A DNA stretch of 32,000 bases from an uncultured bacterium (GCA_963824495.1 CAWGPQ010000006.1:10596-42595); one strand, 5' to 3'. Positions 163 through 28,656 are shown, counted from the stretch's first letter. The notes: generated from the letters alone by a model not told the origin. Made by a program: numbers and translations.

Positions 163-1095
163 ATGCATTATATACCATTAGGTCTTAAGTTTACTCTTAT
201 GGTGGCCATAGCAGGTTCACCGATCGTTAGCGCAAAGCAACATGATGGCTCATTCGTTTATGTTGATTTTGATATTGCTATGAGCAATCACCTTACGCCT
301 GGTAAGCGAAGTAGTCGATTAGATTACTCAAGTAACCTAAAGCTGATCAAAATTTGCAAAAAGTTATACACAACGTATAACCCCCAACGAATGCAAGCTG
401 CTTTATCTCAACCATTAAAAATCCCTAAAATTATCCACCAAATTTGGCTAGGTGGTCCTGTTCCTGAAAAATACACTAACTATCGCCAAAGCTGGATTGA
501 TCATCATCCTGACTGGGAATATAGGCTTTGGACTGATGCTGATGTGGAGAGCTTTCAGCTTCAAAACAAAGAACTTTTTGATAAAGCTCGTAACTATGGA
601 GAAAAAGCAGATATTTTTCGTTATGAGATTCTCCATCGCTACGGTGGCCTCTACGTTGATATTGATTTCGAATGTCTTAAGCCTTTTGACGCATTACATC
701 ATTTTTACGATTTTTATGCGGGATTTGAACAAGAGGGACGCCATATGGAGCTGTGTAACGCAATTATAGGTACGTCACCCGGTAATGCCATAATCAAATT
801 ATGTAACAAGTCACTTAAAGAAGAAGGTGATTATAATGATGTCTTAAGTACCATTAAGCGAACAGGGCCCTATTACTTTACCGAATGTTTCATGAAAGCA
901 ATACAAAATTATAAAGGCAAAGCTCTGATTCTGCCCGTTAGTTTTCTCTATCCTGTTCCCATTAAACCAAAGGTTTATGTTACATTAGAAAGCGTTAAGC
1001 AGTGGATAAGGCCAGAAACTCTTGCTGTTCACTATTGGGCTGCAGGTTGGACAAAATCACCTAAATTAAGCAACTTTTATGAGGAGCACCTATGA
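163..1095 (+). CDS. GT32-type glycosyltransferase paralog 1 with N-terminal signal/anchor
   Basis: 310-aa ORF with AAGGA 8 nt upstream of the ATG. Motifs IPKIIHQIWLGG, HPDWEYRLWTD and YGGLYVDIDFECLKP (DXD) are typical of the Och1/Sur1/A4GALT-like 'Gly_transf_sug' region. Hydrophobic N-terminus ...MVAIAGSPIVSA. Confidence 0.85.
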   Translation: MHYIPLGLKFTLMVAIAGSPIVSAKQHDGSFVYVDFDIAMSNHLTPGKRSSRLDYSSNLKLIKICKKLYTTYNPQRMQAALSQPLKIPKIIHQIWLGGPVPEKYTNYRQSWIDHHPDWEYRLWTDADVESFQLQNKELFDKARNYGEKADIFRYEILHRYGGLYVDIDFECLKPFDALHHFYDFYAGFEQEGRHMELCNAIIGTSPGNAIIKLCNKSLKEEGDYNDVLSTIKRTGPYYFTECFMKAIQNYKGKALILPVSFLYPVPIKPKVYVTLESVKQWIRPETLAVHYWAAGWTKSPKLSNFYEEHL

Positions 1096-2030
1096 AGAAG
1101 CTATGTTTTTTTGTAAATTTAGTATATGTGCTCAATACACTACCGCATACCAACGATCTGCCCGAAGCTCATAGGAATTATTTACGACCATGGGTAAACT
1201 TTGAAAAATCAATGTACCACTATTTTACCACGCAAGATCAAAAGACTCCTTATTCCTCACAAGTCACTCCTGAATGGCACATCGTTAAAATGCTCTATGA
1301 GCGTAATAACCTTGGCACTATACAGCCCTCACCACAACCGAAAATTCCTAAAATCATTCACCAAATCTGGCTTGGTAGTCCATTGCCTAAACAATACAAA
1401 AAATATCAAAAAAGCTGGCGACATCACCATCCTGATTGGGAATATAAGCTTTGGACCGATGCCGATGTAGAGGCCTTCCAACTCCACAATAAAAAACTCT
1501 TTGATGAAGCAAAAAATTATGGTGAAAAATCAGACATCTTTCGTTATGAAATTTTGCACCGCTATGGCGGAGTCTATATAGATACTGATATTGAGTGTCT
1601 TAAGCCTTTTGATATTTTTCATCATTGCTACGATTTTTATGTTGGAACAACCAATCCTGGAACGCTAGAAATAAATAATGCACTTATTGGCTGTGCGCCT
1701 GGACATCCCATCATACAGCTTTGCATCGACTCACTCGGACAAGAAGATGACGCTAATAAATATAGTAATAACTATATTGTCAGCACATTTCAGCGAACTG
1801 GGCCTGCTTATTTTACAAACTGCTTTATGCAGCTAGCGGTGCAATGTGGTGGTACCGTTATAGCTTTCCCTGTGACATTCTTTTATCCCGTACCTAATCT
1901 TCTTGAAGGCTTAACAACTTTGCACAGTGTTAAAAAATGGATTAGACCTGAAACATGGTGTGTACATTATTCAGCACGAAGTTGGCAGAAGAAAGCAAAA
2001 AAATTACGATCACATCGCGGAAACTCATGA
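1092..2030 (+). CDS. GT32-type glycosyltransferase paralog 2
   Basis: 312-aa ORF. The start overlaps the upstream stop as ATGA (1092-1095). Motifs IPKIIHQIWLGS, HPDWEYKLWTD, YGGVYIDTDIECLKP. Confidence 0.85.
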   Translation: MKKLCFFVNLVYVLNTLPHTNDLPEAHRNYLRPWVNFEKSMYHYFTTQDQKTPYSSQVTPEWHIVKMLYERNNLGTIQPSPQPKIPKIIHQIWLGSPLPKQYKKYQKSWRHHHPDWEYKLWTDADVEAFQLHNKKLFDEAKNYGEKSDIFRYEILHRYGGVYIDTDIECLKPFDIFHHCYDFYVGTTNPGTLEINNALIGCAPGHPIIQLCIDSLGQEDDANKYSNNYIVSTFQRTGPAYFTNCFMQLAVQCGGTVIAFPVTFFYPVPNLLEGLTTLHSVKKWIRPETWCVHYSARSWQKKAKKLRSHRGNS

Positions 2031-2980
2031 TACACCTACAGCATACCACAATACGCACTCCATTAGTATGCGCATACCTCGGACTCACACTTGTATACTG
2101 TTGTGTAAGCGCACGCGACCATACCACCAGGAACACTGCTATGGTTGACGTTGTTGACTTTGATGTTTCAATGAGTAATCATATAACTCCCGGTGCATTG
2201 GCAAGAAACCCTTACAAACCTGAAGATTTTTCTCAATGGGAAATACTCAAAAGACTTTATATTACTTACAATCCTAACAATGTTAAGCCATCATCAGAGT
2301 TACGTATACCCAAAATTATTCACCAAATATGGCTTGGTAGCCACTTTCCTAAACACTATGAAAGATACCAAAAAAGCTGGCTTACTTATCATCCCGGCTG
2401 GCTTTATAAACTTTGGACTGACGCAGATGTTAAAAACTTTACCTGGTCCAACCAAAACAGCAAAAAGCTCTTTGACGATGCCCAAAATTACGGCGAAAAA
2501 TCTGATATTTTACGCTATGAGCTTCTCTATCGTTATGGCGGGCTCTACGTCGATGTTGATTTTGAGTGTCTCAAGCCTCTTGATGACTTACATTACTGCT
2601 ACGATGTATATGTTGGTATTGAGCAAGCTCAGCGATTAGAAATTAATAACGCGCTTATTGGCGCAGCACCTGAACATCCATTTCTTAAATTTTGCATCGA
2701 ATCGTTACGAGATCAAGGATCAAAGCGAGACTTCATGGCAATCATGCAACGCTCTGGTCCTGTATTCTTTACCAAGTGCTTTATGCATTGTATCGCATTA
2801 TACGAGGATAGCATGTTTGCCTTCCCTGTAAGCTACTTTTACCCCATACCTATAAAAACAGGAGCATATCATACGCTTAATCAGGTGGCTAACTACATAC
2901 AACCTGAAACGTATGCAGTTCATTACTGGAATTCAAGCTGGACATTACCAAGTGGCTTTGTAAAAGGATCGAAGAAGTAA
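2027..2980 (+). CDS. GT32-type glycosyltransferase paralog 3
   Basis: Track ORF 1955-2980. I place the start at the in-frame ATG at 2027, which forms an ATGA overlap with the upstream stop (2027-2030). That gives a signal-like N-terminus MIHLQHTTIRTPLVCAYLGLTLVYCCVSA. Motifs IPKIIHQIWLGS, HPGWLYKLWTD, YGGLYVDVDFECLKP. Confidence 0.8.
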   Translation: MIHLQHTTIRTPLVCAYLGLTLVYCCVSARDHTTRNTAMVDVVDFDVSMSNHITPGALARNPYKPEDFSQWEILKRLYITYNPNNVKPSSELRIPKIIHQIWLGSHFPKHYERYQKSWLTYHPGWLYKLWTDADVKNFTWSNQNSKKLFDDAQNYGEKSDILRYELLYRYGGLYVDVDFECLKPLDDLHYCYDVYVGIEQAQRLEINNALIGAAPEHPFLKFCIESLRDQGSKRDFMAIMQRSGPVFFTKCFMHCIALYEDSMFAFPVSYFYPIPIKTGAYHTLNQVANYIQPETYAVHYWNSSWTLPSGFVKGSKK

Positions 2981-2983
2981 TTT

Positions 2984-3829
2984 ATGCTCTGTGTCACCCT
3001 TATCTTTTGTATGCTCGGCTTAATCCAGCCTATACTGCTCTGTGCCGATTTTAATACTTCAGACTTTGAATCTCTTAAAGACAACTATAACTATATCTAT
3101 AAGCACAATAGTTCTAGTTCTTTACAAGTGCGCATACCCAAGATTATTCACCAAATATGGCTTGGCAGTCCCTTGCCGAAACGTTTTAAAAAGTATCAAA
3201 AAAGCTGGCTTATACATCACCCTGGCTGGCGCTATAAACTCTGGACTGATGCTGATATTAAAAACTTTACCTGGTCCAACCAAAAGAGTAAAAAGCTCTT
3301 TGACGATGCCCAAAATTACGGCGAAAAATCCGATATTTTACGCTATGAGCTTCTCTATCGTTATGGTGGGCTCTATATCGATGTCGATTTCGAATGCCTC
3401 AAGCCTTTTGACAATCTACATTGTTGCTATGATTTCTATACAGGCATATCTAACACAGCATCACTCGAGCTTAATAACGCGCTTATAGGCTCTGCTGCCG
3501 GTCACCCTATTATGAAACGTTGTATAGAAGATCTTGAAGATACAGGCTCAAAAACCGACCTTATGGCTATTATTGAGCGTACTGGTCCCTTATACTTTAC
3601 ACGCTGCTTTCTTAATTATGCCCAAGAAGCAGATAAAAAAATGCACGAAAAAATAATAGCTTTTCCGCAGAGCTTCTTTTACCCAATACCTAATACTATT
3701 TCTAAAATATGCACGCATGATGAGCTCGAGCATTGGCGCCAACCGGAAAGCTATGCAGCTCACTATTGGGCATGCAGTTGGCAAAAACCTTCCGCTTTTA
3801 TATCAAAAAAAAGGAATATCTTATCATGA
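2984..3829 (+). CDS. GT32-type glycosyltransferase paralog 4
   Basis: 281-aa ORF starting 3 nt after the upstream stop. Hydrophobic N-terminus MLCVTLIFCMLGLIQPILLCA. Motifs IPKIIHQIWLGS, HPGWRYKLWTD, YGGLYIDVDFECLKP. Confidence 0.85.
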   Translation: MLCVTLIFCMLGLIQPILLCADFNTSDFESLKDNYNYIYKHNSSSSLQVRIPKIIHQIWLGSPLPKRFKKYQKSWLIHHPGWRYKLWTDADIKNFTWSNQKSKKLFDDAQNYGEKSDILRYELLYRYGGLYIDVDFECLKPFDNLHCCYDFYTGISNTASLELNNALIGSAAGHPIMKRCIEDLEDTGSKTDLMAIIERTGPLYFTRCFLNYAQEADKKMHEKIIAFPQSFFYPIPNTISKICTHDELEHWRQPESYAAHYWACSWQKPSAFISKKRNILS

Positions 3830-5808: not shown

Positions 5809-6753
5809 ATGGAGCACATACAAAAGATTACGTCAGGCATTCAGCGTTATGTCATACTGTTGTTTATAGTACTTGAGTTGTTTAGTGTTACACATGTACG
5901 GGCAGCTTGGGTCGACTTTGATCAAGCGATGGGAAAACATCTTAAGATTAACCCAATGGTCCCTCTGGACGAATATCAAAGAAGAAAGCAATTTTATAAA
6001 GCACTTTATAATAAAAATAATTTAGCAAAAGTTAAACCTCAAAACAACCCCAAAATACCCAAAATCATTCATCAAATCTGGCTTGGAAGTCCTTTTCCTG
6101 AAAAATTTAAGCCACTGCAAGAAACCTGGATTACAAAACATCCAAGTTGGAAGTATATTTTATGGACTGACGAATCGGCCAAGCAACTTAAGCTGTGGCA
6201 CAAAACATGGTTTAAAAAAATTAAGAATCTAGGATTTAAGGCTGACCTATTACGCTGCGAAATACTTTACCAGTATGGCGGACTCTATATTGATGTTGAC
6301 TTTGAATGCGTAAAGTCATTTGACCTATTACATCATTGCTACGATTTTTATGCTGGTTTGCCTCGTAATCAAACTGATATGGATATCGCTAATGGTTTAA
6401 TTGGTTCTAGAGCAGGACATCCTATTTTAAAAAATTACTTAAAGACTGTTGGCGTGCATCTTGAAAAATACTTTAAGACTCATTCTCGGCAAACAAATGA
6501 TCTTATGAACGTTGTTGGATCCCCTGCCTTATCCAATTCTGTACGAAAAGTAACTAAACTTAACGATCCAACAAGTATCACCGTCATTTTTCCCGTGAGT
6601 TTCTTTTACCCGTGGTTTCATATGTATGGTATTGAAGCCAAGCATTGGCAAGGAGCACTTGGTATACACAAGCGCAAAGATATTTATCGTATCCTTAAAC
6701 CTGAATCGTTTGCACTTCATTACTGGGGAGGGACCTGGGAAAACAGCTGGTAA
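5809..6753 (+). CDS. GT32-type glycosyltransferase paralog 6 (more divergent)
   Basis: 314-aa ORF with AGAGGA upstream. IPKIIHQIWLGSPFP, HPSWKYILWTD, YGGLYIDVDFECVKS. Hydrophobic segment YVILLFIVLELFSVTHVRA. Confidence 0.85.
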   Translation: MEHIQKITSGIQRYVILLFIVLELFSVTHVRAAWVDFDQAMGKHLKINPMVPLDEYQRRKQFYKALYNKNNLAKVKPQNNPKIPKIIHQIWLGSPFPEKFKPLQETWITKHPSWKYILWTDESAKQLKLWHKTWFKKIKNLGFKADLLRCEILYQYGGLYIDVDFECVKSFDLLHHCYDFYAGLPRNQTDMDIANGLIGSRAGHPILKNYLKTVGVHLEKYFKTHSRQTNDLMNVVGSPALSNSVRKVTKLNDPTSITVIFPVSFFYPWFHMYGIEAKHWQGALGIHKRKDIYRILKPESFALHYWGGTWENSW

Positions 6754-6812: not shown

Positions 6813-8186
6813 ATGATAGTAACGATTAATACACCAAACATATCCATAACAAGCATATTACTCTTACTAGTCTTTTCTATAGCATATACACTTCAGCCAA
6901 TCCCTCCTCTACCTCAACCTTTTGATAACACACTAAGACGTTCCGATACTCCTGCCATCATTACTTATAAAGCTATTGATTTGGTCAATAAATTTAGATT
7001 GGATATAATGGCTAAGTACATTTATGCAAAGCATAGAGAAATGAACGTAAAAAGTGATTGGGGTCTGCGAGTATACAGCGAGCATCTTCATGTTTGGAAT
7101 AATTACTACGAAGCAAGTAATCCTGCCAAGAACAGCCTTAGTGCATATCTTAGAGCATTTCACAAAACACTTGATTCAGTAAAAGCCCAGGGATTTTCAG
7201 CAACTACATCACTTGTTCCATTAGGCCTGCGATCTATCGATGATGGTGCGCATAGAGTAACTGCGTGCTTACTCTATAACAAAGATGTACTTTGCAAGCA
7301 AACTGATAATCCAGGACACGATGCTTCATCACACTTTTTTAGAAATAAGCGAGATTACGTTCCAACCGGTCTTGCTGAAAAATATCTTGACGCAATGGCA
7401 TTAACCTATTGTGAACTCAAGGAAAATACTGCTATCGTTGTAATTTTCCCTCGGGCTATTAAAGACAATCAACGAATTAAAAAAATACTCCAAAACTATA
7501 TGCATAGCATATATGAAAAAGAGATTACGCTGAAAGCTTCAGGTCCCCGTAATTTTATTAGGAACTATCTGGAAGCCTCCAGCAAAGTAAACCAATGCTT
7601 TACTCAGAACCGTACTCATTCGTGGACTATTCATGTATTTCTTGTTGAAATACTTAACCAATCACTTATGCAGAAAGCCAAACAAGAAATTAATGACGCT
7701 CTCGGTATTTCGCAAGCAGTGCATGTAACAGATGGTCATGATGACACTCTAAAATTAGCACGGGCTGTTTTTAACCAAAATAGTATACATTTTCTTAATA
7801 ATGCCAACTCTAAAGATTTTAAAAACTTCAATGATTTTTTTACTATTTATAAAAACTGGCTTGATAGAAACTCTTTTGATAAAGAGTGCTTTTGCATAAC
7901 TGGTGATGCTGTACTGGCAGCATATGGTATACGTGACTGTCAACAACTTGGTTTTATACATCACGGTTACAATAACCAATGCTCGATCGAAATAAGCTCA
8001 ATAACTGACAACAATAGCGATGCTTATTATCGTACAATGAGTAAAGACAACATACTATTTAACCCAGAAAATTATTTTTATTATCGTGATATAAAATGTG
8101 CTGCTTTGCATGTCGTTAGAAACATGAAAGCCCGACAGACCAACTTCCGATATTTTCAACCTTATGGAGACCCTCAAGAGGGATAA
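6813..8186 (+). CDS. Hypothetical 457-aa protein, N-terminal TM/signal segment, possible ParB/sulfiredoxin-like 'DGxHR' motif
   Basis: Long ORF with GAGGAAAATTACG before the ATG. N-terminus ISITSILLLLVFSIAYT. Motif SIDDGAHRVTACLL resembles the ParB/Srx-fold DGxHR signature. I recognise no family for the rest. It sits between glycosyltransferases and the flippase. Confidence 0.55.
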   Translation: MIVTINTPNISITSILLLLVFSIAYTLQPIPPLPQPFDNTLRRSDTPAIITYKAIDLVNKFRLDIMAKYIYAKHREMNVKSDWGLRVYSEHLHVWNNYYEASNPAKNSLSAYLRAFHKTLDSVKAQGFSATTSLVPLGLRSIDDGAHRVTACLLYNKDVLCKQTDNPGHDASSHFFRNKRDYVPTGLAEKYLDAMALTYCELKENTAIVVIFPRAIKDNQRIKKILQNYMHSIYEKEITLKASGPRNFIRNYLEASSKVNQCFTQNRTHSWTIHVFLVEILNQSLMQKAKQEINDALGISQAVHVTDGHDDTLKLARAVFNQNSIHFLNNANSKDFKNFNDFFTIYKNWLDRNSFDKECFCITGDAVLAAYGIRDCQQLGFIHHGYNNQCSIEISSITDNNSDAYYRTMSKDNILFNPENYFYYRDIKCAALHVVRNMKARQTNFRYFQPYGDPQEG

Positions 8187-8260
8187 GATAGCGTACCATA
8201 CACGACCGTGAGCTTAAGCCTCACCTGACCTGCAAAACTAACACAAAATACAAATCAACT

Positions 8261-9577
8261 ATGGGTATTACAAAGCCTGCTTGTGCTCGATATTTTCACA
8301 TACATGATAGCGTAAAAAAATTTGCTATTTACTGCTTGAGCTCAGCAGTACTCAAAAGCACGTCTGTTATGTTACTGCCTCTCACGCTCCACACATTAAA
8401 CCCTCAAGATATGGGTATTCTTTCGCTTGCCAATAGCTTTATAAGTATTGTCTCAGTACTTATGGGATGTGGTTTACGCCAGGTATTCTGGCTCGATTTT
8501 TTTCACCTCAATCAGCACAATCGTAATGAGCTGCTTGTCGATATTATAGCAGTTTATTGCGTACTCAGTCTTACAAGCATGCTCCTATTAATACTCAACA
8601 TAAGTTTTATTAATAGCTATATTTTTTTACTAAGTGCTTCACCTTTACTTATCATGCTCATTCTTACAATCTGCTTTTTCAGTTTTTTTGCTGAATTATT
8701 ATATCAAGTGCTTATATATCAGGGGCAAGCATGGGCGCTATCACTTGTTCAGCTTGCTGCCACTCTTATTTCAACAAGTACTATCCTTATAAGTCTACGC
8801 TATTTCGCTGGAGGTGTGATGCTCATTCTTATGGCAAACTTGCTCGGTACGCTTTTCGTGTCGATCATTGCTCTTGGGCTATTTCTCAAAACATCACTTA
8901 TTAGCTATTATAGCATTGGTCGATTACGCACAAGTTTTTTTTCATATATCAAGCGTGGACTGCCCTTTATACCCTCGGTATTGAGCGGATGGATACTAGC
9001 ATCAAGTAACCGATGGATGCTTGCTCATTATACTTCGCTCGCTGATGTTGGTGTCTATTCTCTTACAGAAATGCTCACAAGCATTTTTCAGGTTTGTATT
9101 CTTTACCCAATCAGCGGAGCATATTTACCCTCCCTCATGCAAGCTTTTGCTCAACACCCCAATAATATACATAACATCGACGCCTATAACAAAAAAATTA
9201 TGGCTACAAGCATGCTTGGCTTGAGCACAGGTGCCTGCTTGGGCTTTGTTGTAGGAAAAAGCTTACTATACCACTTTTTACCAAAAGCTTATTATCAAGC
9301 AATACCCTATCTTCTTATTACTGCGCTGGGCAATATATTTCTTATGGGTACGTATTTTAGCTCATGTAGTATTCAATTCTATAAAAGAACTACTTTTTTA
9401 GCTGGATCGTTAACATCCTCTGCAATGCTTACCCTTACACTGAGCGCTCTGCTTATCCCCCGGTACGGCTTGGGGGGTTCAGTAATTTCGCTTACATCGG
9501 CCTATACAGGTTATTTTTTTATAACGCTTGCATATAACCAATGGCTCCACATAGAAAATAAAAATTACTATATATAA
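8261..9577 (+). CDS. Wzx-like polysaccharide/oligosaccharide flippase (MOP superfamily) membrane protein
   Basis: 438-aa ORF that is hydrophobic throughout, with about 12 predicted TM stretches by eye. The N-terminal pattern (K.STSVMLLPLTLHTLNPQDMGILSLANSF) and its location in a sugar locus fit Wzx-type transporters. Confidence 0.6.
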   Translation: MGITKPACARYFHIHDSVKKFAIYCLSSAVLKSTSVMLLPLTLHTLNPQDMGILSLANSFISIVSVLMGCGLRQVFWLDFFHLNQHNRNELLVDIIAVYCVLSLTSMLLLILNISFINSYIFLLSASPLLIMLILTICFFSFFAELLYQVLIYQGQAWALSLVQLAATLISTSTILISLRYFAGGVMLILMANLLGTLFVSIIALGLFLKTSLISYYSIGRLRTSFFSYIKRGLPFIPSVLSGWILASSNRWMLAHYTSLADVGVYSLTEMLTSIFQVCILYPISGAYLPSLMQAFAQHPNNIHNIDAYNKKIMATSMLGLSTGACLGFVVGKSLLYHFLPKAYYQAIPYLLITALGNIFLMGTYFSSCSIQFYKRTTFLAGSLTSSAMLTLTLSALLIPRYGLGGSVISLTSAYTGYFFITLAYNQWLHIENKNYYI

Positions 9578-9660: not shown

Positions 9661-10299
9661 ATGAAAAATATACGTATTGCCTTAGGCATCGCAATTCTTA
9701 CAAGTTTTAGTCAGTATTGTAGCGCTTATACCTGGAATGTAATAAATCTGACTGGTCAATCTGCAAACATTAAAATTAAGCCTGCATGTGTGGGAGAGGG
9801 TCCTTGGTCAAACGTGCCACCTTCGCCCGACTTGAAGCATCCTGTGAGAGTTCCCTTAAAGGCTCAGGAGGGTTGCTGTATTGCTGGTGTACAAGTAGAT
9901 GGAAAAGATGTTGATCTTAGGGCAATAACGAATGATCAATTGGCTAAGCTTATGTATATCTCTCCACTCCTGGGCATTGGAGGCGCTACTGCCGGTGCCA
10001 CTGCTGAGATTGTAGCTGGCTTTACGGCTGGAGCTGGTGTAGCAAGTGCAGCTGCCCCTATTGTAGCTGCAGTTCCTCCTATCGCAATAGGAGCAGCCCT
10101 AGCCGTAGTGGGAGCGGGAGCAGCAATTGGCATAACTGAAGCCATCGATAGATGCAAGAGCCGTGATCTTGTTGTAGGAACCGATGGTGCCTATCTGGTA
10201 ATAGAATCAGCTGAGGCAGTGGCTCACAAGGCAGTAAGCGAAACTCGTGAGTTTTTTGGGAAAATGAGAGGAAAGGTTCAAAGCCTTTTTCATGAATAA
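9661..10299 (+). CDS. Secreted Gly/Ala-rich protein, tandem family member 1 (long C-terminal variant)
   Basis: AAAGGAG RBS. Signal peptide MKNIRIALGIAILTSFSQYCSA, then YTWNVINLTG, CCIAGVQVDG, a variable G/A/P-rich hydrophobic tract, GITEAIDRCKSRDLVVGTDGAYLVIE, and the tail SAEAVAHKAVSETREFFGKMRGKVQSLFHE. Confidence 0.8.
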   Translation: MKNIRIALGIAILTSFSQYCSAYTWNVINLTGQSANIKIKPACVGEGPWSNVPPSPDLKHPVRVPLKAQEGCCIAGVQVDGKDVDLRAITNDQLAKLMYISPLLGIGGATAGATAEIVAGFTAGAGVASAAAPIVAAVPPIAIGAALAVVGAGAAIGITEAIDRCKSRDLVVGTDGAYLVIESAEAVAHKAVSETREFFGKMRGKVQSLFHE

Positions 10300-10756
10300 A
10301 CTAGAGTTCCCGCTCAGACCTATGACGAGATATTAAAGAAACGTGGAATTCACTGGCAATAGAGGCACTTCTAGCTGCCGCAGGCATAGGTACAGCATTT
10401 GGCATAACAGAGGCCATTGATAGGTGCAAAAGCCGTGATCTTATTATAGCAAGTGACGGTTGCCTATCTTGCGGTAGAAAAGAAACAAGAACAGGACCAA
10501 GGAACTGAATAATTACGATTAGATAAATCTTAAAAAAATAATATTTTACTATTATTTAGCTAAATTAAAACTTATTATTGCAGTTCAGCATAAATATTTG
10601 TTATTGTAGTATTAAGTAAATCAAAATAAAAGAAGGAAAGTAAAATGAAAAATACACGTATTGCTTTAGGTATCATAATTCTCACAGGTTTTAGTCAGTA
10701 TTGTAGCGCTTATACTTGGAATGTAATAAATCTGACTGGTCACCCTGCAACTATTA
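10120..10756 (+). repeat. Direct repeat copy A (637 bp, 100% identical to 11140-11776)
   Basis: Base-by-base comparison of the two blocks. The first mismatches are at 10119/11139 and 10757/11777. The repeat spans the 3' end of member 1, the relic, the AT-rich spacer and the first 112 nt of member 2. Confidence 0.95.
10326..10512 (+). pseudogene. Frameshifted 3' relic of a family member (short 'VVEKKQE' C-terminal type), copy 1
   Basis: No start codon. Reads ...IEALLAAAGIGTAFGITEAIDRCKSRDLIIASDG. An extra T at about 10461 then shifts the frame. The corrected frame gives AYLAVEKKQEQDQGTE*, matching the ends of members 3 and 4. Confidence 0.7.
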
Positions 10757-11319
10757 CGATTAAGCTTGTAGGATGCAAGGGCGACGGCATTTCGCAGCAA
10801 GTTCCACCCGCTGATTTGAAACATCCTAGTGGGAAAGCCTTTACCCCAACCAAAGAATACCAGCAAGTTTGCTGCATTGCTGGCGTACAAGTTAATGGAC
10901 ACGATATACCCTTTAAAGCACTAACGGACGAGCAGTTCGAAAAGCTAAAAACCGTCACGTTACCCGCAGGTTTGCTTGGTGGTGCAGCAGTTGGTGGTCC
11001 TGCTATTATCAGCGGTCTTTCTGTGCTTACCGGTGCGACTGCTGCGGCTGCAGTTGGACTTTCGGGTATTGAAACTGCAACTACGTTTGTAGCACCACCG
11101 GTTGCGATAGCAGGGGCTCTTGTCCTGGCAGGCGCAGGGGCAGCAATTGGCATAACTGAAGCCATCGATAGATGCAAGAGCCGTGATCTTGTTGTAGGAA
11201 CCGATGGTGCCTATCTGGTAATAGAATCAGCTGAGGCAGTGGCTCACAAGGCAGTAAGCGAAACTCGTGAGTTTTTTGGGAAAATGAGAGGAAAGGTTCA
11301 AAGCCTTTTTCATGAATAA
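10645..11319 (+). CDS. Secreted Gly/Ala-rich protein, tandem family member 2 (long C-terminal variant)
   Basis: AGAAGGAAAG RBS. Same signal peptide/YTWNVINLTG head and an identical 3' module to member 1. The unique variable core is 10757-11139. Confidence 0.8.
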   Translation: MKNTRIALGIIILTGFSQYCSAYTWNVINLTGHPATITIKLVGCKGDGISQQVPPADLKHPSGKAFTPTKEYQQVCCIAGVQVNGHDIPFKALTDEQFEKLKTVTLPAGLLGGAAVGGPAIISGLSVLTGATAAAAVGLSGIETATTFVAPPVAIAGALVLAGAGAAIGITEAIDRCKSRDLVVGTDGAYLVIESAEAVAHKAVSETREFFGKMRGKVQSLFHE

Positions 11320-11776
11320 ACTAGAGTTCCCGCTCAGACCTATGACGAGATATTAAAGAAACGTGGAATTCACTGGCAATAGAGGCACTTCTAGCTGCCG
11401 CAGGCATAGGTACAGCATTTGGCATAACAGAGGCCATTGATAGGTGCAAAAGCCGTGATCTTATTATAGCAAGTGACGGTTGCCTATCTTGCGGTAGAAA
11501 AGAAACAAGAACAGGACCAAGGAACTGAATAATTACGATTAGATAAATCTTAAAAAAATAATATTTTACTATTATTTAGCTAAATTAAAACTTATTATTG
11601 CAGTTCAGCATAAATATTTGTTATTGTAGTATTAAGTAAATCAAAATAAAAGAAGGAAAGTAAAATGAAAAATACACGTATTGCTTTAGGTATCATAATT
11701 CTCACAGGTTTTAGTCAGTATTGTAGCGCTTATACTTGGAATGTAATAAATCTGACTGGTCACCCTGCAACTATTA
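11140..11776 (+). repeat. Direct repeat copy B (637 bp, 100% identical to 10120-10756)
   Basis: See copy A. This copy spans the 3' end of member 2, relic copy 2, the spacer and the 5' end of member 3. Confidence 0.95.
11346..11532 (+). pseudogene. Frameshifted 3' relic of a family member, copy 2
   Basis: Identical to 10326-10512 because it lies inside the 637-bp repeat. Confidence 0.7.
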
Positions 11777-12189
11777 AAATTAAGCTTGCAGGGTGCAAGG
11801 GCGACGGAATTTCAAATCCTGATTCACCTCACAAGAACCCTATACCACCTTCACCTGATTTGAAGCATGCTGTAAAGATCCCCTTCACCGCAGAAAAAAG
11901 GTACCAAAAAAATTGTTGCATCGCGGGAGTCCAAGTTAATGGAAAAGATGTTCACTTTAGTGCCATATCAAAAGAGCAATTTCGCTTAGTCCCATCTATC
12001 TCTGGCCCAACCTCATTTGTTGCTGGTGTTGCAGCGGAGGCAGAGGCGGCAGCGATTCCATTAGCGACTGCGGGCGTAGGCGCAGCATTTGGCATAACAG
12101 AGGCCATTGATAGGTGCAAAAGCCGTGATTTAATTGTCGCAACTGATGGTGCCTATCTTGTGGTAGAAAAGAAACAAGAAGCTGCCTAA
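11665..12189 (+). CDS. Secreted Gly/Ala-rich protein, tandem family member 3 (short C-terminal variant)
   Basis: The 5' 112 nt are identical to member 2. YTWNVINLTG, CCIAGVQVNG, GITEAIDRCKSRDLIVATDGAYLVVEKKQEAA*. Confidence 0.8.
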   Translation: MKNTRIALGIIILTGFSQYCSAYTWNVINLTGHPATIKIKLAGCKGDGISNPDSPHKNPIPPSPDLKHAVKIPFTAEKRYQKNCCIAGVQVNGKDVHFSAISKEQFRLVPSISGPTSFVAGVAAEAEAAAIPLATAGVGAAFGITEAIDRCKSRDLIVATDGAYLVVEKKQEAA

Positions 12190-12229
12190 TATTGGGAACA
12201 AAAACTGAATAACTTAAAAGGTTAATACG

Positions 12230-12814
12230 ATGAAGATAAACTTATTAATGACGCTCGTCATCGCAACTCTTATAGGTTTTAGTCATTACTGTAGCGCTTA
12301 TACTTGGAACGTAATAAACCTAACGGGTATACCTTTAAATATTAAGATTAAGCTTGATCGATGTAAGGGCGAAAATCCTTGGAAAAACGTTCAGCCTTCA
12401 TCGCTAGCTAATCCAAAGGGGATTCTTATAACTCCAAGTAAACCATACCAACAAGGTTGCTGTATTGCTGGTGTACAAATAGGTATACCAGAAAAAGGCA
12501 CAAATACGATAAGGTGGAAAGACATTGAGTTTAAGGCTATATCACATGATCAATTGACTAGGGTCATGGCTTTACCTGGGGGTATTACTGGAGCCACAAC
12601 TATTGCAGGTCCAATAGAACTTGCAGCACTAGCTGAAATACCTGTTGCAGCTGCCGCTTTACCTGTAGCTATGCTAGGGACACTCCTATTTGCTGCAGGC
12701 GCAGGCGCAGCATTCGGCATAACAGAAGCAATTGATAGATGCAAAAGCCGTGATCTTATCGTCGCAAGTGATGGTGCCTATCTTGTTGTAGAAAAGAAGC
12801 AAGAAGCTGAATAA
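12230..12814 (+). CDS. Secreted Gly/Ala-rich protein, tandem family member 4 (short C-terminal variant)
   Basis: Signal peptide MKINLLMTLVIATLIGFSHYCSA, YTWNVINLTG, CCIAGVQIG, G/A-rich hydrophobic tract, GITEAIDRCKSRDLIVASDGAYLVVEKKQEAE*. Confidence 0.8.
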   Translation: MKINLLMTLVIATLIGFSHYCSAYTWNVINLTGIPLNIKIKLDRCKGENPWKNVQPSSLANPKGILITPSKPYQQGCCIAGVQIGIPEKGTNTIRWKDIEFKAISHDQLTRVMALPGGITGATTIAGPIELAALAEIPVAAAALPVAMLGTLLFAAGAGAAFGITEAIDRCKSRDLIVASDGAYLVVEKKQEAE

Positions 12815-14675: not shown

Positions 14676-16790
14676 TTAAAACTTGTATTCAACACCTATA
14701 CTTAACGTAAACGCTGGATCATGACCTAATATAGCAACTCGCTCTGCAGGCTTACGCTTATCTTTCTCGATATTGTTTTTTCCACCATCCAAATACTCGA
14801 TATACTTCTCCTGAGCTTTATTAAGCGGAACATGCCTCATATCTCTAAAATGAGAGCCAGGAATAAAGAGCGATCCAACAAAAAAGAACTTAAGATCATC
14901 AAGCAATAAACGTTCAGCAAATAAGTTAAGCTCTGTGCCCAAAAATTTTCCTGCAGTTTTAACTGGTGATGCTCTTTTATGATCACTATGTGCATCAGCT
15001 TCAAGAAGATCAAATCTTCTGGTAGGAGCATATTGCCAATAAGCAAGAATATTAGGATTAACTTCAAAGGGATACTTGCCTGCAGGTAATTTAAAGTAAA
15101 GCCCAGCGCCCGTAAAAATTAAATTCATAAAGCGCACAACGACGGTAGGAAAATGATCATCAAGTTTTCCTACGGGAACCGAGAGTAGTCGTGGAACTTT
15201 GCCACTTCCACTCAAGAAGAAAGCACTTTTTACGCGAAGACCGGTATATAATTCCTGTAGGCTAATAAAGCCCTTAAACTTTTTGTCTTCATGGGAATCA
15301 TGTAAATCTTTATGATCTTTATTAGGATGATCATCGCCTGTGGCAAATCCTGCTGTTACAGCAAGCTTAAGAGCCCGCTTATAAAGCCAATACGATATAT
15401 CACCAACAAACATTGCGCCGTGAAATGTATTACAATACGAATCAGTAAACCGGTGCTCAGCATTTTTAATGTGATCATGCCCGTACTCGGGGATTTTTTT
15501 CGCATTATGCTCTGTATCTTGAGGGGCGTTATTAATTACTTCCTGGCGCTCTTTTTTAAATATTGCTTTTTCACCCGGCTTATCTGGTTCAAGAGCATGG
15601 TCGGTGGCTAAAACGTGACTATTGACAAAGAAATCGGCGCCATCTCTGATCTCTTCGATAATAGTATTTCTATCGCGCTTCTTTACCTCTTGATTACCAA
15701 CATTAAAAGCAGTATCAAAACCAAATTCCCAGTTACCAAATTCTGCTTCAACAGCCAATCCAAGTGTACCTAACTTAGAATGTGCATCGCCAATAAATTC
15801 TATTTTTTGCTCACGTTGTTCTGTAAAAAGAGCATACGGTTCAAATGAAAGCTTTTTACCTGGTTCAGTAAACGGAAGCCAAAATAAACGTCCTGCAATA
15901 ATATAGTTAATTTTACCAAAACCACGTGCTGGATCAAACCGGGATCCAACTATTTGTGTTCTTACCCTCTCAGCTATATTATCAAGTGTATCGGCTCTAT
16001 TAAGCGCTATCTCTGCGTAGATATCGTATTTTATATTATATTTTTTCCAAAGATCGCCTGAGATCTTAAATCCTGGAGCAAACTGATCAATGGCATTAGG
16101 AGAATAATACCCAATAAAATCAGGATCGACACCGTAGGCAGATCCAAGTGCTATACCTCGCCCAAGTTCAAAAGGAAAGTATCCCATCGTTAACCGGTGC
16201 TTAGGCTCGCACGTAAGCCCTAGTATGTCATTAATAGATATCTCAAGCCATAGTTCACGAATCCAGAGCAAGTGTCGTGGTAAGAAGTGAAAGTGCTCAC
16301 CGCTGGTAGCCTCAAGATGTCTTATGCCCGTAAAGCTTGTAGCAAATATTTCAGGTGCTCCCCAATTAGCTTTGTTACGTATTGTACTCTTAAAGACAAG
16401 AACATCGCATCGATGCGACGCCCGACCGTAAATATACTGAAAATTAAAATCAAGAGTGTGACGACCGGGTATAAGTATGCGGTCAAGAATGGGCGATTTT
16501 ATGTTATTTTCATGATTTAAAAATTTAAGATTATTGGCATAAAGCCCATCAATGCGCAATTTCGTATAAAACTCCCAGCAGCTATCTCCCAAAACGCCTG
16601 AAAGTGGCATCTTCTTAATAGGATCTTTCGTTAGACTCAGAGCTGTCTCATCAGTAGTAAAAGGAGGTTTAATTTCCTCTTCGGTTACTGAAAGACGTTG
16701 ATTCTTGTCTGATGTTTGAGCACGCAATGAGCTTGCTAAAAAAACTCCACAAGTCACCGTGAATAGCCACAGTGACATACGCCTAATCAT
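14676..16790 (-). CDS. Outer-membrane beta-barrel protein (porin or alginate-export-like), family unassigned
   Basis: GAGGAGAATTT before the ATG. Signal peptide MIRRMSLWLFTVTCGVFLASSLRAQT. Alternating amphipathic/aromatic-rich sequence. The C-terminus ...LSIGVEYKF ends in Phe, as in BAM substrates. Confidence 0.6.
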   Translation of the reverse strand: MIRRMSLWLFTVTCGVFLASSLRAQTSDKNQRLSVTEEEIKPPFTTDETALSLTKDPIKKMPLSGVLGDSCWEFYTKLRIDGLYANNLKFLNHENNIKSPILDRILIPGRHTLDFNFQYIYGRASHRCDVLVFKSTIRNKANWGAPEIFATSFTGIRHLEATSGEHFHFLPRHLLWIRELWLEISINDILGLTCEPKHRLTMGYFPFELGRGIALGSAYGVDPDFIGYYSPNAIDQFAPGFKISGDLWKKYNIKYDIYAEIALNRADTLDNIAERVRTQIVGSRFDPARGFGKINYIIAGRLFWLPFTEPGKKLSFEPYALFTEQREQKIEFIGDAHSKLGTLGLAVEAEFGNWEFGFDTAFNVGNQEVKKRDRNTIIEEIRDGADFFVNSHVLATDHALEPDKPGEKAIFKKERQEVINNAPQDTEHNAKKIPEYGHDHIKNAEHRFTDSYCNTFHGAMFVGDISYWLYKRALKLAVTAGFATGDDHPNKDHKDLHDSHEDKKFKGFISLQELYTGLRVKSAFFLSGSGKVPRLLSVPVGKLDDHFPTVVVRFMNLIFTGAGLYFKLPAGKYPFEVNPNILAYWQYAPTRRFDLLEADAHSDHKRASPVKTAGKFLGTELNLFAERLLLDDLKFFFVGSLFIPGSHFRDMRHVPLNKAQEKYIEYLDGGKNNIEKDKRKPAERVAILGHDPAFTLSIGVEYKF

Positions 16791-20542: not shown

Positions 20543-22510
20543 CTATGGTGTCTCAGCTACTTCAAGATAACACTCTACACGATCATCAACTTGCCAATCG
20601 TCGAATCCTTCAATAAGAAAGGCACACTCAAAACCTGCATGAACCTCTTTGACAGATTTTTTTTCTCGCTGAAGACTTTTAATAGGTCCTTCACCTATTT
20701 TATATTTACCCCGCCAAACTGTTACTTTACCATCTCGAGAGCATCGCCCAGATTTAACGTGAGCCCCTGCAATAGTACCCAAATTTTTGATAACGAATAC
20801 TTTAACAACAACCGCCTCACCAGTTTTTTTAGTAACTTTTTTAGCTGGTTTTCCTTGTTCAACAAGAAAAGCAAGATCATCAAGAAGCTGATAGATAACG
20901 CCAAATGTTTTGGTGCTAACGCCCAGCTTTTGAGCTAATGCGGCTGCTGTTGGCTCAACTTTACTATGCAGCGTATAAATAAGGGACTTGGTATCATGTG
21001 CTAAAATAACATCACCTTCGGTTACCATCCCGACGGCGGCATGAACAACATACAGCTCCTTAAAAGCCTTGCCACCCATTTTGCCAATTGCCTCTAACAA
21101 GGCTTCTTGTGATGAGATCGTATCAGTTTTTATAACAAGATTAAGAGCATTCTCATGAAGTACTTGTCGAGCAAGAGCAGGCTTTTGCTCACGAGTACGT
21201 TCTCGCTTAAGCTCTTCTTGAGGGATAATTTCAAAAGGATCGCCAGCAGGTGGTAATTGCGTAAATCCCGAAACTTGTACGGGCTTTGAAGGGTAGGCTG
21301 CATCGATACGCTTGCCCATATAATCAGTTAGAGAGCTCACACGCCCATACATATCCCCAGCTCTAAAATAATCTCCAACATGCAAAATACCATCATGTAG
21401 TATAACGGTAGCTACTGACCCTCGCCCTTTCTCCATGCGTGATTCAAGAACGTAGCCACGAGCTAATACTTCAGTGTGAGCAGTTAATTCCATAAGCTGT
21501 GACTGCAAAATAATAAGATCAAGCAGTTCGTTAACACCTTGGCCAAGTTTAGCAGAAATAGGAACAACAACGGTTTGACCACCCCATTCTTCAGGTACAA
21601 GATCGTATTGTACTAAACCTCGCTTTACTGCTTCAATTTGCTGCGCTGTGGCCTTGTCAATTTTATTGATAGCAACAATAATCGGTAGTCCAACTGCTTT
21701 TGCATGTTTAATAGCTTCTATTGTTTGTGGCATAATGCCATCATCGGCGGCAACAACAAGAATAGCTATATCAGCTACTCGTATGCCACGCTCTCGCATA
21801 CGAGAGAATGCTTCATGGCCTGGCGTATCGAGAAACACAAGATTACCGTGAGGTGTATAGGCTTCATAAGCACCCAAGTGCTGTGTTATGCCACCTTTTT
21901 CTTTAGCTGCTACGCGCGTTTTTCGAATAAAATCAAGAAGTGTTGTTTTACCATGATCAACATGGCCGATAACTACAACAATAGGAAGTCGCGATTCTCG
22001 AGCTCCTTGCTCTATTTGTGCATGAGTATGATGGCTCAATGCTTTTTTCACAGCAGGTTCACTCGTTTTAATACCGTAATGCTGGGCTATTTGGCTAACA
22101 ATTTTTTCTGATACTACCTGATTTTTATTGGCAGCAAAACCTTGGCGAAGAAGCATCAGAATGATTTCGCTAACAGGCTTACTTACGTGTGCTGCAAGGT
22201 CGGCTATGGTCATGGGTTCAAGCGGCATAGCCACAGGCTCTAAAGGCTTAGCTTGGGACCGTGATGCCTCAGGAGAGCGTGAAGACGGCTGTGATGGAGT
22301 TGCTGTGACGGGAGCAGGCTCTTGAGCTGTGCTTATATGAGGAGTGCTAGGCTGATTGCTGTTCAGCTTTTTTTCAAGAAATGTTTGAGCATCTGGTGAG
22401 AGCACAGACATATGACTTGCAATATCAAAGCCACCTTCTTGAAGTAGTTTGACAAGCTCTTTCGTGGGAAGCCCATATTTTTTAGAAAATTCGTATACGC
22501 GCATTGTCAT
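20543..22510 (-). CDS. infB: Translation initiation factor IF-2
   Basis: N-terminal [13 protein letters not shown]-domain [12 protein letters not shown] / DTPGHEAF / NKID, conserved C-terminal domains. The track ORF begins at a TTG (22540). ATG 22510 or 22504 is more plausible. Confidence 0.93.
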
Positions 22511-22558
22511 GTACGTTATGCCATTCGTGCTTTGTAGCAATAGCTCATTAATAGCTCA

Positions 22559-23638
22559 TTAAATTTGTTCGTTATGAGGCTGCTGGAGCTCTCCTGATTC
22601 TTCTACTTCTTCTATTAGATCGAGTGGCTCATGTTTCATCAAATGAATGTTAAGCCCTGTTAACTGACAAGCAAGTGCTATATTTTGACCCATTTTACCT
22701 ATGGCAAATGATCGTTGATCTTCATCAAGCCAGACTTCTACGTTTTTGTTATCGATCATTTCAACACGATTAATCTTTGCGGGTTTTAAAGCATCTCTTA
22801 CTAATTCTTCAATTGAGCTGCTAAATCTAATAATATCAATTTTTTCACCACCTAATTCACCAAGAATTGGCTGGATTCGGGTACCTCCAATGCCAACGCA
22901 GGCTCCTACAGGATCAATGTTCTTACCGTGTGATACTACCAAAACTTTTGATTTATATCCAGCCATACGGACAACTTTATTGATTTCGACGATTTTCTCG
23001 TAAATTTCCGGGATCTCAAGCTTAAAAAGCTTTGCCAAGAATTCGGGGGACACTCGATCAAGAATGAGTTGATTTTCGTTACGTGGTTCAGGTAAAACTT
23101 CTTTAAGCAGAGCTCGAATAGTATATCCTACCGTGCACTTATCACCAGGTATAGTAAGCGACTTTGGCAAAAATGCAAGGGTATCACCAATTTTTACGGT
23201 AACTCCCATACGTTCGCATTTGTGTATAACACCTTGAACAATTTCGCCTTCTTGAGGTTTAAATTCGTTGTAGATAGCTGCAGCTTCAATGCTACGGATC
23301 TTTTGGGCAATGATCTGTTTTGCTTTTAAGATCTCGATACGACCGATGGGCCCCTCAAAAGGAACCTCGATGCTATCGCCAAGCTGGACATCTTCTTTTA
23401 TCGAGCGAGCCTTACGCAGGCTGACTTCTTTGTCTTCATCAGTTACGCTGCTTACTACACTTTTTACAGCGAAAGTCTCAATTTCATCGGTTTTTTTGTT
23501 GTAATGCACTGCAAACGTTATAGTGGGATATCTTTTTTCATAAGCAGCAAGCATGCCTTCGCACATGATGGTGCTTAATACAGCACGATCCAGGCCTTTC
23601 TCTTCAACGAGTTCTTCTATGACATTCGACAGTTTCAC
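22559..23638 (-). CDS. nusA: Transcription termination/antitermination factor NusA
   Basis: N-terminal domain, an S1 domain (GEIVQGVIHKCERMGVTVKIGD) and KH domains (DPVGACVGIGGTRIQPI; AIGKMGQNIALACQLTG). There is no in-frame ATG at the N-terminus. A GTG at 23638 follows AGGAAAAGTT. The track uses a TTG at 23653. Confidence 0.9.
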   Translation of the reverse strand: MKLSNVIEELVEEKGLDRAVLSTIMCEGMLAAYEKRYPTITFAVHYNKKTDEIETFAVKSVVSSVTDEDKEVSLRKARSIKEDVQLGDSIEVPFEGPIGRIEILKAKQIIAQKIRSIEAAAIYNEFKPQEGEIVQGVIHKCERMGVTVKIGDTLAFLPKSLTIPGDKCTVGYTIRALLKEVLPEPRNENQLILDRVSPEFLAKLFKLEIPEIYEKIVEINKVVRMAGYKSKVLVVSHGKNIDPVGACVGIGGTRIQPILGELGGEKIDIIRFSSSIEELVRDALKPAKINRVEMIDNKNVEVWLDEDQRSFAIGKMGQNIALACQLTGLNIHLMKHEPLDLIEEVEESGELQQPHNEQI

Positions 23639-23814
23639 AACTTTTCCTAGCAAAATTAAGAATCATTTACACCAGCACGCTTAGATAGCATAACAAAAAA
23701 ATGAGCAGATTGAAAGCCGGAGTATACACCTTTTGGGTAATCGTAAAAGTTGATAGTCCCAAAAAAGGTTTCAGTCTGTGTAAACACCTACTATTACTTT
23801 ATTATTAATACCGA

Positions 23815-28320: not shown

Positions 28321-28656
28321 TTAGTAAAATTGGAGCCTAGTCAAGAGCAGTTTACTCTCTCTGCTGGCAATGACATGGGTCACCCTGTGCAGCAAGAACC
28401 CATGGCCTTTGGGCCATGTGAGCGTCAATACAGCGATAGTTAATGGGGCTACGCCAGCTTCGTTCATAACATTAACGTTTGCACCTTGATTAAGTAAGCT
28501 CTCAGCCTCTAATGTGTCATCATTTTCGACAGCTTCAAGTAGAGCGTAACCAGGTGATTGTCGCTTGCTTGGTTGCAGTTGCTCAATACTATATGTGTTA
28601 CAAGATAGGCAGGTGACAAATAAGCTAAAAGTAGCGAAGCTTTTGCAAGATATCAT
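28321..28656 (-). CDS. Small ankyrin-repeat protein with N-terminal signal-like segment (possibly a truncated remnant)
   Basis: MISCKSFATFSLFVTCLSC..., then GYALLEAVENDDTLEAESLLNQGANVNVMNEAGVAPLTIAV, which matches the ANK consensus (G..LL.A......LL..GA.VN..D..G.TPL..A). The tail after that has no ANK pattern. Confidence 0.5.
   Translation of the reverse strand: MISCKSFATFSLFVTCLSCNTYSIEQLQPSKRQSPGYALLEAVENDDTLEAESLLNQGANVNVMNEAGVAPLTIAVLTLTWPKGHGFLLHRVTHVIASRESKLLLTRLQFY

Follow-up and report, generated by a model that had tools for sequence, protein, structure and literature searches.

The question that this locus raises is what kind of protein is encoded by four tandem genes, termed here G1 to G4, that lie at positions 9661 to 12814 of a 32,000-nucleotide (nt) stretch of DNA from an uncultured bacterium (GCA_963824495.1 CAWGPQ010000006.1:10596-42595; the whole stretch is termed here the window), and by what processes the array was formed. 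The answer favored here, to which we assign a rough probability of 0.55, is that these genes represent a rare family of Sec-exported, cysteine-braced beta-sandwiches with a fast-changing, membrane-interacting loop, and that the array has been shaped by duplication, gene conversion and decay. An initial annotation of this DNA had proposed four same-strand genes for proteins of 174-224 amino acids (aa), and the open reading frame (ORF) table places all four exactly where they had been proposed:

G1, 9661..10299, + strand: 212 aa, located by the ORF table and by alignment of the four proteins; its signal peptide (aa 1-22) is followed by a beta-sandwich N-domain, the insert (aa 102-156; nt 9964-10128), the C-module and a tail.
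G2, 10645..11319, + strand: 224 aa; G1-like architecture, with the insert at aa 107-168 (nt 10963-11148).
G3, 11665..12189, + strand: 174 aa; the shortest insert (aa 113-140; nt 12001-12084) and a short end, KKQEAA.
G4, 12230..12814, + strand: 194 aa; a 10-aa insertion within the N-domain, with the insert proper at aa 116-160 (nt 12575-12709).

Each gene has an ATG with a purine-rich, Shine-Dalgarno-like stretch upstream of it and encodes a leader; a promoter and terminator consensus scan performed no better than on shuffled sequences. G4, which begins 40 nt past G3, is the most divergent of the four copies. The tail of G1 consists of 30 aa that are predicted to be helical and whose sequence, SAEAVAHKAVSETREFFGKMRGKVQSLFHE, is identical in G1 and G2; at the nucleotide level, the 3' 180 nt of G2 are identical to G1 and its 5' 112 nt are identical to G3. 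Alignment shows that the leader ending in YCSA, the head YTWNVINLTG and the motif CCIAGVQ are invariant in G1-G4, as the initial annotation had maintained. Its description of the C-module needs one correction: the module is indeed invariant in G1-G4 as ...GITEAIDRCKSRDL.V..DGAYLV.E, but the residue preceding (I/F)GITEA is Ala (GAA[IF]GITEA) and not Gly. Outside its two motifs, the N-domain is only moderately conserved among the four proteins. Antisense ORFs (73-145 aa) inside G1-G4 were rejected as genes, being mirror images of Ala/Gly-rich (GCN/GGN) coding runs.

How large is this family? When 5.8 billion clusters were searched by word index, seven proteins emerged: those of the four window genes, two orthologs on short contigs of the Joint Genome Institute (JGI) metagenome 3300079084 (P0003, an ortholog of G2, on contig L012; and P0005, an ortholog of G1, on contig L013) and one protein (P0007) from another genome. 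Word-index searches with broader profiles added only further paralogs on contig L011. An exhaustive hmmsearch of 1.84 billion representatives yielded 21 matches at E <=1e-3, about 16 of which are small proteins (59-216 aa) with the family layout--that is, a leader, A-Y-T-W-x-V-x-N, a Cys, a Cys-Cys (CC) motif, an [ND]-G turn, a variable stretch and a Cys-containing C-terminal module. Five large proteins (P0017, P0018, P0020, P0023 and P0024; 538-1182 aa) were rejected as members: they match only the short CC..G..NG motif, many times over, and each contains 5-9 copies of a ~37-aa repeat, 'ARFKAECCLRGLALNGQQVTPDAVVKDY'. A metagenome scan gave a single match, an unrelated 294-aa protein (L010 78-962) that shares only the GGCCISGIQVDGK mini-motif. 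The five repeat proteins and the 294-aa protein thus have the mini-motif CC[IL]xG[IVL]x[VL][ND]G in common with the family, for which homology and convergence are both possible explanations. Scans with family patterns of the Genome Taxonomy Database (GTDB) species representatives, and of viral contigs (IMG/VR), found no relatives.

The distant members are distributed as follows: L011 carries five tandem paralogs; L016, three tandem paralogs of a short form that has no hydrophobic stretch; L014, one copy and one truncated copy, adjoining mreC; and L015, one copy, adjoining mutS. Across these loci, where the neighbors include MreC, MutS, ABC transporters and an M23 peptidase, no neighboring gene recurs but tandem arrays do. 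Upstream of the five-gene array, L011 also encodes (7158-8532, - strand) two paralogous small proteins with signal-like N-termini (163 and 156 aa) and a 137-aa ORF; the pair shares '..DICGFAQ[VI]P..VVCSSG..F.N.GS' and is apparently another tandem family of ORFans.

That the family has no characterized relative, as had been surmised from the sequence, is borne out by the absence of any Pfam, NCBIfam, PADLOC, PHROG, PDB-sequence or Foldseek match. A Pfam scan of the four proteins at E <=1 produced two noise matches only (a phage holin family and Indigoidine_A); scans of G1-G4 and of distant members against NCBIfam, PADLOC and PHROGs produced only noise; a sequence-profile search of the PDB produced riboflavin synthase only, at an E of about 1; and no comparable system was found described in the literature searched. 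Judged by these searches, the four genes belong to a protein family that has very few members and had not been described before; in its general kind, it is a familiar one.

What, then, do the conserved residues suggest about structure? The leader has n-, h- and c-regions and the features of a Sec and signal peptidase I (SPase-I) substrate, including an Ala or Gly at position -1 that is conserved across an alignment of 21 members. In the same alignment, the mature N-terminus Y-x-W is at least 90% conserved; N29, C84, C85 and C151 (G3 numbering) are invariant; and A22 (leader position -1), Y23, W25, C44, P55, G93 and D161 are conserved in at least 90% of the sequences. C44, C84, C85 and C151 probably staple the fold together as two disulfides. 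An AlphaFold2 (AF2) model based on seven sequences had a predicted local distance difference test (pLDDT) score of only 52 overall; its N-domain and C-terminal hairpin were confident nonetheless. With 17 sequences and G3 as the target, the pLDDT was 72.7 and the predicted template-modeling (pTM) score 0.65. In this model, residues 24-106 form a beta-rich domain (pLDDT 80-93), residues 115-142 are unconfident (with the insert below a pLDDT of 50, at about 25-40), and the C-module consists of a helix (139-152), which runs into the invariant Cys, and a beta-hairpin (155-167), at a pLDDT of 85. Foldseek searches of two AF2 models against PDB and BFVD gave best E-values of about 0.14-2, with probability at most 0.13 and template-modeling (TM) score at most 0.25. 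In the L016 short forms, the sandwich is joined to the C-module by about 20 polar or aromatic residues, with no hydrophobic stretch; because these forms do without the insert, the C-module and the sandwich should not be separated by the membrane but should belong to a single extracytoplasmic fold, and the Gly/Ala-rich region should be viewed as an insertion.

This insertion, the Gly/Ala-rich core of the protein, is 28-62 aa long and is composed of G, A, V, I, L, P and T to at least about 90% in G1, G2 and G4 and to about 80% in the short core of G3; residues that are either hydrophobic or small account for at least 85% of it. Its proximal half (i.e., that before the C-module) is conserved as P-x-A-I-x-x-x-L-x-x-A-G-x-G-A-A-[IF]-G-I and is marginally hydrophobic. 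G1, G2 and G4 contain one near-threshold segment each, with a Kyte-Doolittle score of 2.07-2.25 and an additive free energy of insertion (dG) of about +0.7 to +0.8 kcal/mol, on a scale whose values are reportedly those of Hessa et al. 2005. Hydrophobicity is lower in the distal half (dG at least +2), and G3 has no transmembrane-like segment. The glycine-zipper character that the initial annotation had ascribed to these cores turns out to be an effect of composition: counts of small-xxx-small patterns are equal to or below shuffle means in all four.

Might the core serve to anchor the protein? G1-G4 could be periplasmic proteins held in the inner membrane, either by a stop-transfer helix before the C-module or by a two-helix hairpin, such that the sandwich is tethered as an envelope component. 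In G1, G2 and G4 the most hydrophobic 19-residue window (Kyte-Doolittle 2.07-2.25; dG about +0.7 kcal/mol) is indeed followed by an R-C-K-S-R cluster; a length of 45-62 aa gives the inserts room for a hairpin; and a conserved Pro or Pro-Pro preceding the proximal segment could mark the turn. Against this, G3 lacks a transmembrane-like segment and the L016 short forms lack any hydrophobic segment, yet the latter keep the C-module and its invariant Cys, so that it is difficult to square a shared fold with a protein that crosses the membrane once and has its C-module in the cytoplasm. Moreover, a stable second helix would require more hydrophobicity than the distal half of the insert offers, and AF2 predicts no helices in most of the insert. 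On balance, an inner-membrane anchor seems unlikely.

The same hairpin might instead act on a foreign membrane, if the proteins are secreted effectors that damage or target host membranes, either as pore-former-like proteins or as analogues of chlamydial Inc proteins, the sandwich binding and the hairpin inserting. A Sec leader combined with a hairpin that is hydrophobic only marginally, and that could pass the translocon, would suit such a role, as would the lifestyle of the Dependentiae (the group to which the window is assigned below), which are intracellular parasites with many secreted ORFans and an apparent release of outer-membrane vesicles. The top Foldseek neighbors, moreover, are beta-sandwich modules by which pore-forming toxins bind membranes: the aegerolysins IP-1A and OlyA, domain 4 of cholesterol-dependent cytolysins and the actinoporin FraC. 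These neighbors are non-significant, however (E above about 0.14, with the low probabilities and TM scores given above), and are not evidence: the window family has no significant structural similarity to aegerolysins, to cytolysin domain 4 or to actinoporins. Neither a secretion system for crossing the outer membrane nor a partner or immunity gene is encoded nearby, and the hairpin is absent from G3 and from the short-form relatives. A membrane-damaging or host-membrane-targeting effector therefore appears quite improbable.

How selection has acted on the different parts of these proteins can be gauged both from paralogs and from orthologs. The orthologs compared are those of the window versus L012 and L013, at about 88-90% nt identity; the ratio of nonsynonymous to synonymous substitution rates (dN/dS) was estimated by the Nei-Gojobori method, and the two values in a line are for the two ortholog pairs:

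Signal peptide: paralog aa identity 59-100%; ortholog dN/dS about 0.2.
N-domain: paralog aa identity 51-63%; ortholog dN/dS 0.03 and 0.12.
Core: paralog aa identity 23-36%, with many indels; ortholog dN/dS 0.85 and 0.62.
C-module: paralog aa identity 84-100%; ortholog dN/dS 0.12 and 0.33.
G1/G2 tail: 100% aa identity between G1 and G2; ortholog dN/dS 0.62 and 0.82.

By the N-domain ratios (0.03-0.12), G1-G4 are real genes. The core does diverge more than its flanks, as had been supposed, both in segment-wise paralog identity and in ortholog dN/dS; it is, on these estimates, the fast-evolving part of the protein, without positive selection. The cores of the two orthologous pairs are 73-84% identical. 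The five-gene array of L011 shows a comparable gradient in its N-domains (68-87% identity), inserts (21-51%) and C-modules (52-81%), but its leaders are only 27-59% identical; the near-identical 5' ends seen in the window are therefore a local feature rather than a trait of the family.

The array contains a long, perfect repeat, within which lie fragments of further, decayed copies:

10120..10756: copy 1 of a 637-base-pair (bp) perfect direct repeat (an exact-match run at offset 1020), comprising the G1 C-module and tail, a 345-nt spacer that contains relic 1, and the first 112 nt of G2.
11140..11776: copy 2 of this repeat, which runs from the 3' end of G2 through the spacer into the 5' end of G3.
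10347..10512, + strand: relic 1, a 3' fragment of a G3/G4-type paralog, reading ..LAIEALLAAAGIGTAFGITEAIDRCKSRDLIIASDG / AYLAVEKKQEQDQGTE and then a stop (three-frame translation, tblastn and repeat family D1).
11367..11532, + strand: relic 2, an exact second copy of relic 1 at an offset of +1020 nt (tblastn and repeat match).

The equivalent pair of 5' ends on L012 shows a likeness of only 86%, which implies that homogenization was recent in the window lineage; the 5' end of G2 in the window resembles the G3 lineage. The repeat indicates recent conversion, or else duplication of a 1020-bp unit, in that lineage. (A perfect 637-bp repeat whose copies are 1020 bp apart is unusual in a short-read-type assembly, and the assembly could have too few or too many of the 1020-bp units, each made up of the G2 core and the repeat.) Relic 1 has one extra nucleotide at 10461, which shifts the frame, and has neither a start codon nor a variable core. 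The orthologous relic on L012 (about 760-960) is longer and has a +2 nt indel at the same site, as opposed to +1 nt in the window. It lies in frame with the upstream gene, directly past the stop codon of that gene. Relic 2 and the L012 relic are 92.8% identical in nt sequence, against 85-86% for the flanking spacer; this higher conservation may stem from conversion that still proceeds from intact copies, or the relic may be of some use. The G1 ortholog on L013 differs in its tail, has no relic after it and is followed by another paralog. This paralog (about 1560-1820) has no in-frame ATG, GTG or TTG, the only nearby ATG being out of frame; it may be a pseudogene or the product of a sequencing frameshift. 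Given the 637-bp perfect repeat, and relics in both lineages, it follows that the locus evolves by duplication, conversion and decay.

Could such recombination serve to vary a surface antigen? Conserved 5' and 3' blocks might guide segmental gene conversion that swaps the cores of an exposed antigen or adhesin, as occurs in families such as Anaplasma Msp2/P44, Neisseria pilE/pilS and Borrelia vlsE, and the initial annotation had likened the array to variable surface-protein families of this sort. Part of that likeness holds: this is a paralog family with a divergent core between conserved ends, the evidence for non-allelic recombination is clear, and the array includes truncated copies, as do the Msp2/P44, pilE/pilS and vlsE systems. 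Array content varies between close relatives, as the altered tail and missing relic on L013 illustrate, and the organism probably lives inside protists. The rest of it is not supported. G1-G4 are all complete and separately translatable, so that nothing here corresponds to the expression site and silent cassettes of the known systems; there are no promoterless core cassettes, and the relics retain the conserved C-module only, i.e., not the variable center. The conversion tracts that can be seen cover, and homogenize, the ends and spacers and not the cores. The identity of orthologous cores, and core dN/dS values (0.62-0.85) below 1, likewise tend to speak against an antigen-varying system, as does the nature of the core, which is hydrophobic, Gly/Ala-rich and of low complexity, unlike an exposed epitope region. 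Finally, the array lacks simple-sequence or inverted repeats that could drive phase variation, and no Pfam-recognizable recombinase or reverse transcriptase was seen among the window ORFs scanned. Antigenic variation through core exchange is thus, in our estimation, distinctly improbable.

In which organism, and among which genes, does the array reside? Downstream of the array, and convergent to G4, are genes for aspartyl-tRNA synthetase (AspRS), a 704-aa protein, an apurinic/apyrimidinic (AP) endonuclease, glycosyltransferases (GTs) of families GT61 and GT4, IF2, NusA, uracil-DNA glycosylase (UDG), ComEC and MnmG. By tblastn, AspRS is 61% identical to the copy in a Candidatus Dependentiae metagenome-assembled genome (MAG), a single 10-kb contig of which is matched by IF2, GT4, the AP endonuclease, the 704-aa protein and AspRS. 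Because of this identity and this five-gene synteny, the window is attributed to a Dependentiae (TM6) bacterium; on such sequence grounds, the window and the closest relatives of the family come from Candidatus Dependentiae. These are widespread, mostly uncultured intracellular parasites of protists, whose secreted ORFans are presumed to drive manipulation of the host; to our knowledge, almost none of these secreted ORFan proteins has a defined architecture. In the isolate Chromulinavorax destructans, 44% of coding sequences bear signal peptides and this set is enriched for ORFans (PMC6561590), so that an exported ORFan family is to be expected in this group.

Several neighbors merit comment on their own account. 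The 704-aa protein (14676-16790, - strand) has a signal peptide, a C-terminus ..GVEYKF and no Pfam match even at an E of 1; it looks like an outer-membrane beta-barrel. Its ortholog, which is 38% identical, lies on a Dependentiae MAG contig (L006) beside matches to four other window genes. The shortness of IF2 (665 aa) and NusA (364 aa), at 20543-23653, is in keeping with a reduced genome. Ankyrin repeats are matched weakly (E 0.05-0.1) by a 111-aa ORF (28321-28656). By Rfam and tRNA scans, the window contains no RNA family and no tRNA.

On its upstream side, the array follows an island in which Pfam recognizes five GT32-like genes, two GT2 genes and a Wzx-like flippase, and which also encodes a 457-aa protein with no Pfam match; G1 starts 83 nt after the flippase gene, which confirms the glycosyltransferase/flippase island reported earlier. 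The five GT32-like paralogs (Gly_transf_sug, with a DXD motif; 163-3829 and 5809-6753) give weak matches to the catalytic domain of TcdA/TcdB; interleaved as they are with the two GT2 genes, the 457-aa protein (6813-8186) and the flippase, they constitute a second tandem paralog expansion in the window.

This proximity had suggested that G1-G4 might be glycosylation substrates, in which case the products of the island would modify them at their N-L-T sequon. The array does come directly after the flippase and its seven glycosyltransferase genes; the adjacency of Wzx and G1 is preserved on L013, a close relative; N29 is invariant; and N-x-T occurs in 15 of the 21 family members. Most of the evidence points the other way, and the suggestion is not upheld. 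Among the large ORFs scanned in the window there is no STT3/PglB-type oligosaccharyltransferase and no GT41 N-glycosyltransferase (the 704-aa neighbor was considered as an oligosaccharyltransferase and rejected, as its signal peptide and C-terminal ..VEYKF point to an outer-membrane barrel). The remaining 6 of 21 members have N-x-L in place of N-x-T. Position -2 of the sequon is occupied by V, I, T or H and in no case by D or E: the window head W-N-V-I-N-L-T, with Val at -2, thus differs from the D/E-x-N-x-S/T of PglB-type N-glycoproteins. Nor is the neighborhood conserved, since the distant arrays adjoin unrelated genes. Glycosylation by the island is accordingly very improbable indeed.

The favored alternative, an exported sandwich with a membrane-interacting loop, would operate as follows. 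The protein would be exported across the inner membrane and its Sec leader cleaved. The mature chain would then fold into a compact beta-sandwich of about 85 residues, which the C-terminal helix and beta-hairpin (the invariant module) would close and which the four conserved cysteines would brace via two disulfides. Between the sandwich and the closing module, an accessory insert of 28-62 residues, whose distal half appears to be free in both length and sequence, would project from the domain as a hydrophobic loop or helical hairpin. Being unlikely to serve as a stop-transfer anchor, the insert may, after export, dip into a membrane or another hydrophobic surface, whether of the bacterial envelope or of the host. 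At the level of the locus, evolution would follow a birth-and-death course, in which genes are duplicated in tandem, partial deletions leave relics of the C-module behind and recent conversion homogenizes ends and spacers; the cores would keep paralog-specific sequence under a relaxed, composition-preserving constraint.

A number of considerations weigh against this account. Because G3 has no transmembrane-like segment, membrane insertion cannot be universal in the family. We infer a function for the four proteins rather than observe one, and localization at the surface or in a membrane is presumed. Export and leader cleavage are predicted from sequence features, and the packing of the C-module and the disulfide pairing from the pTM score, residue conservation and the short forms. 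Given the very low AF2 confidence of the insert, this region could equally be a disordered linker, an oligomerization element or a true transmembrane hairpin that stays behind in the inner membrane. Consensus collapse during metagenome assembly could make the 637-bp repeat look more perfect than it is. And the Dependentiae placement is one of the window and its closest relatives; the distant members (on L011 and L014-L016) may belong to this or to another group.

A more specific and doubtful extension of the favored reading is that these proteins define a Dependentiae host-interaction class. Here a hairpin just below the insertion threshold would pass through the translocon and would insert only later, into a host-derived or vesicle membrane; the hairpins of different paralogs would be tuned to different membranes or hosts; and conversion of the ends would keep the array evolvable.

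What this analysis adds is a defined architecture, together with locus dynamics, for an exported ORFan family. The family signature comprises the mature N-terminus Y-x-W-x-[VI]-x-N, the CC motif, the [ND]-G turn and a closing module whose Cys is invariant, and a confident model is available for the sandwich domain, the fold of which has no recognized relative. Some paralogs have the hydrophobic insert, others a short version of it or none at all, so that the family supplies natural variants for membrane-interaction tests. The array also provides an example, in a reduced genome, of conversion that extends from the 3' part of a gene through the spacer into the 5' part of its neighbor, accompanied by relics.

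Among known systems, the glycine-zipper 2TM outer-membrane lipoproteins (SlyB/Pcp and the Rickettsia 17-kDa antigen; PF05433 and related Gly-zipper families) show a likeness: in these small proteins of the envelope, as in the predicted plan of G1-G4, a hydrophobic hairpin rich in Gly accompanies a small beta domain. The window proteins differ from them in that the hairpin sits inside the domain rather than before it, zipper motifs are not enriched, and there is neither a profile match at E <=1 nor a structural match in the PDB. The possibility that they are lipoproteins was rejected: the leader ..SQYCSA|YTW has its Cys at -3, after S-Q-Y, with no lipobox, and this Cys is absent from distant members. 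Gly/Ala-rich class II microcins and bacteriocins likewise differ, in that the leader here is of the Sec type and not double-glycine, and the array includes neither a C39-peptidase ABC exporter nor a small immunity ORF.

Chlamydial Inc proteins have a type III signal and a bilobed hydrophobic domain of about 40-60 residues. A partial likeness lies in the 45-62-aa hydrophobic stretch, split by a turn, of G1, G2 and G4, one lobe of which reaches transmembrane-like hydrophobicity, and in the occurrence of clustered, rapidly diverging paralogs in an intracellular bacterium. The differences are that G3 and the short forms lack the stretch; that the window proteins have a cleavable-type Sec leader, with no type III secretion system genes among the window ORFs scanned; and that their hydrophobic region is near the C-terminus, inside a folded, cysteine-containing domain. 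If insertion into host membranes does occur, these proteins would be a Sec-dependent counterpart of the inclusion-membrane proteins delivered by type III secretion; if not, they would be one more lineage-specific family of envelope proteins.

The closest parallel in general character is provided by the small secreted ORFan tandem families of obligate intracellular bacteria, for which the signal-peptide-rich ORFan complement reported for the Dependentiae isolate Chromulinavorax destructans (PMC6561590) is an example, and with which the window family shares a Sec leader, the lack of an annotated domain, a restricted taxonomic range, tandem expansion and an evolutionary rate that exceeds that of neighboring genes (the Wzx ortholog is 89% identical at the aa level, versus about 74-79% for G1). 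It differs from them in having a defined sandwich with an inserted loop, a closing module and four conserved cysteines, and in forming arrays on several unrelated contigs.

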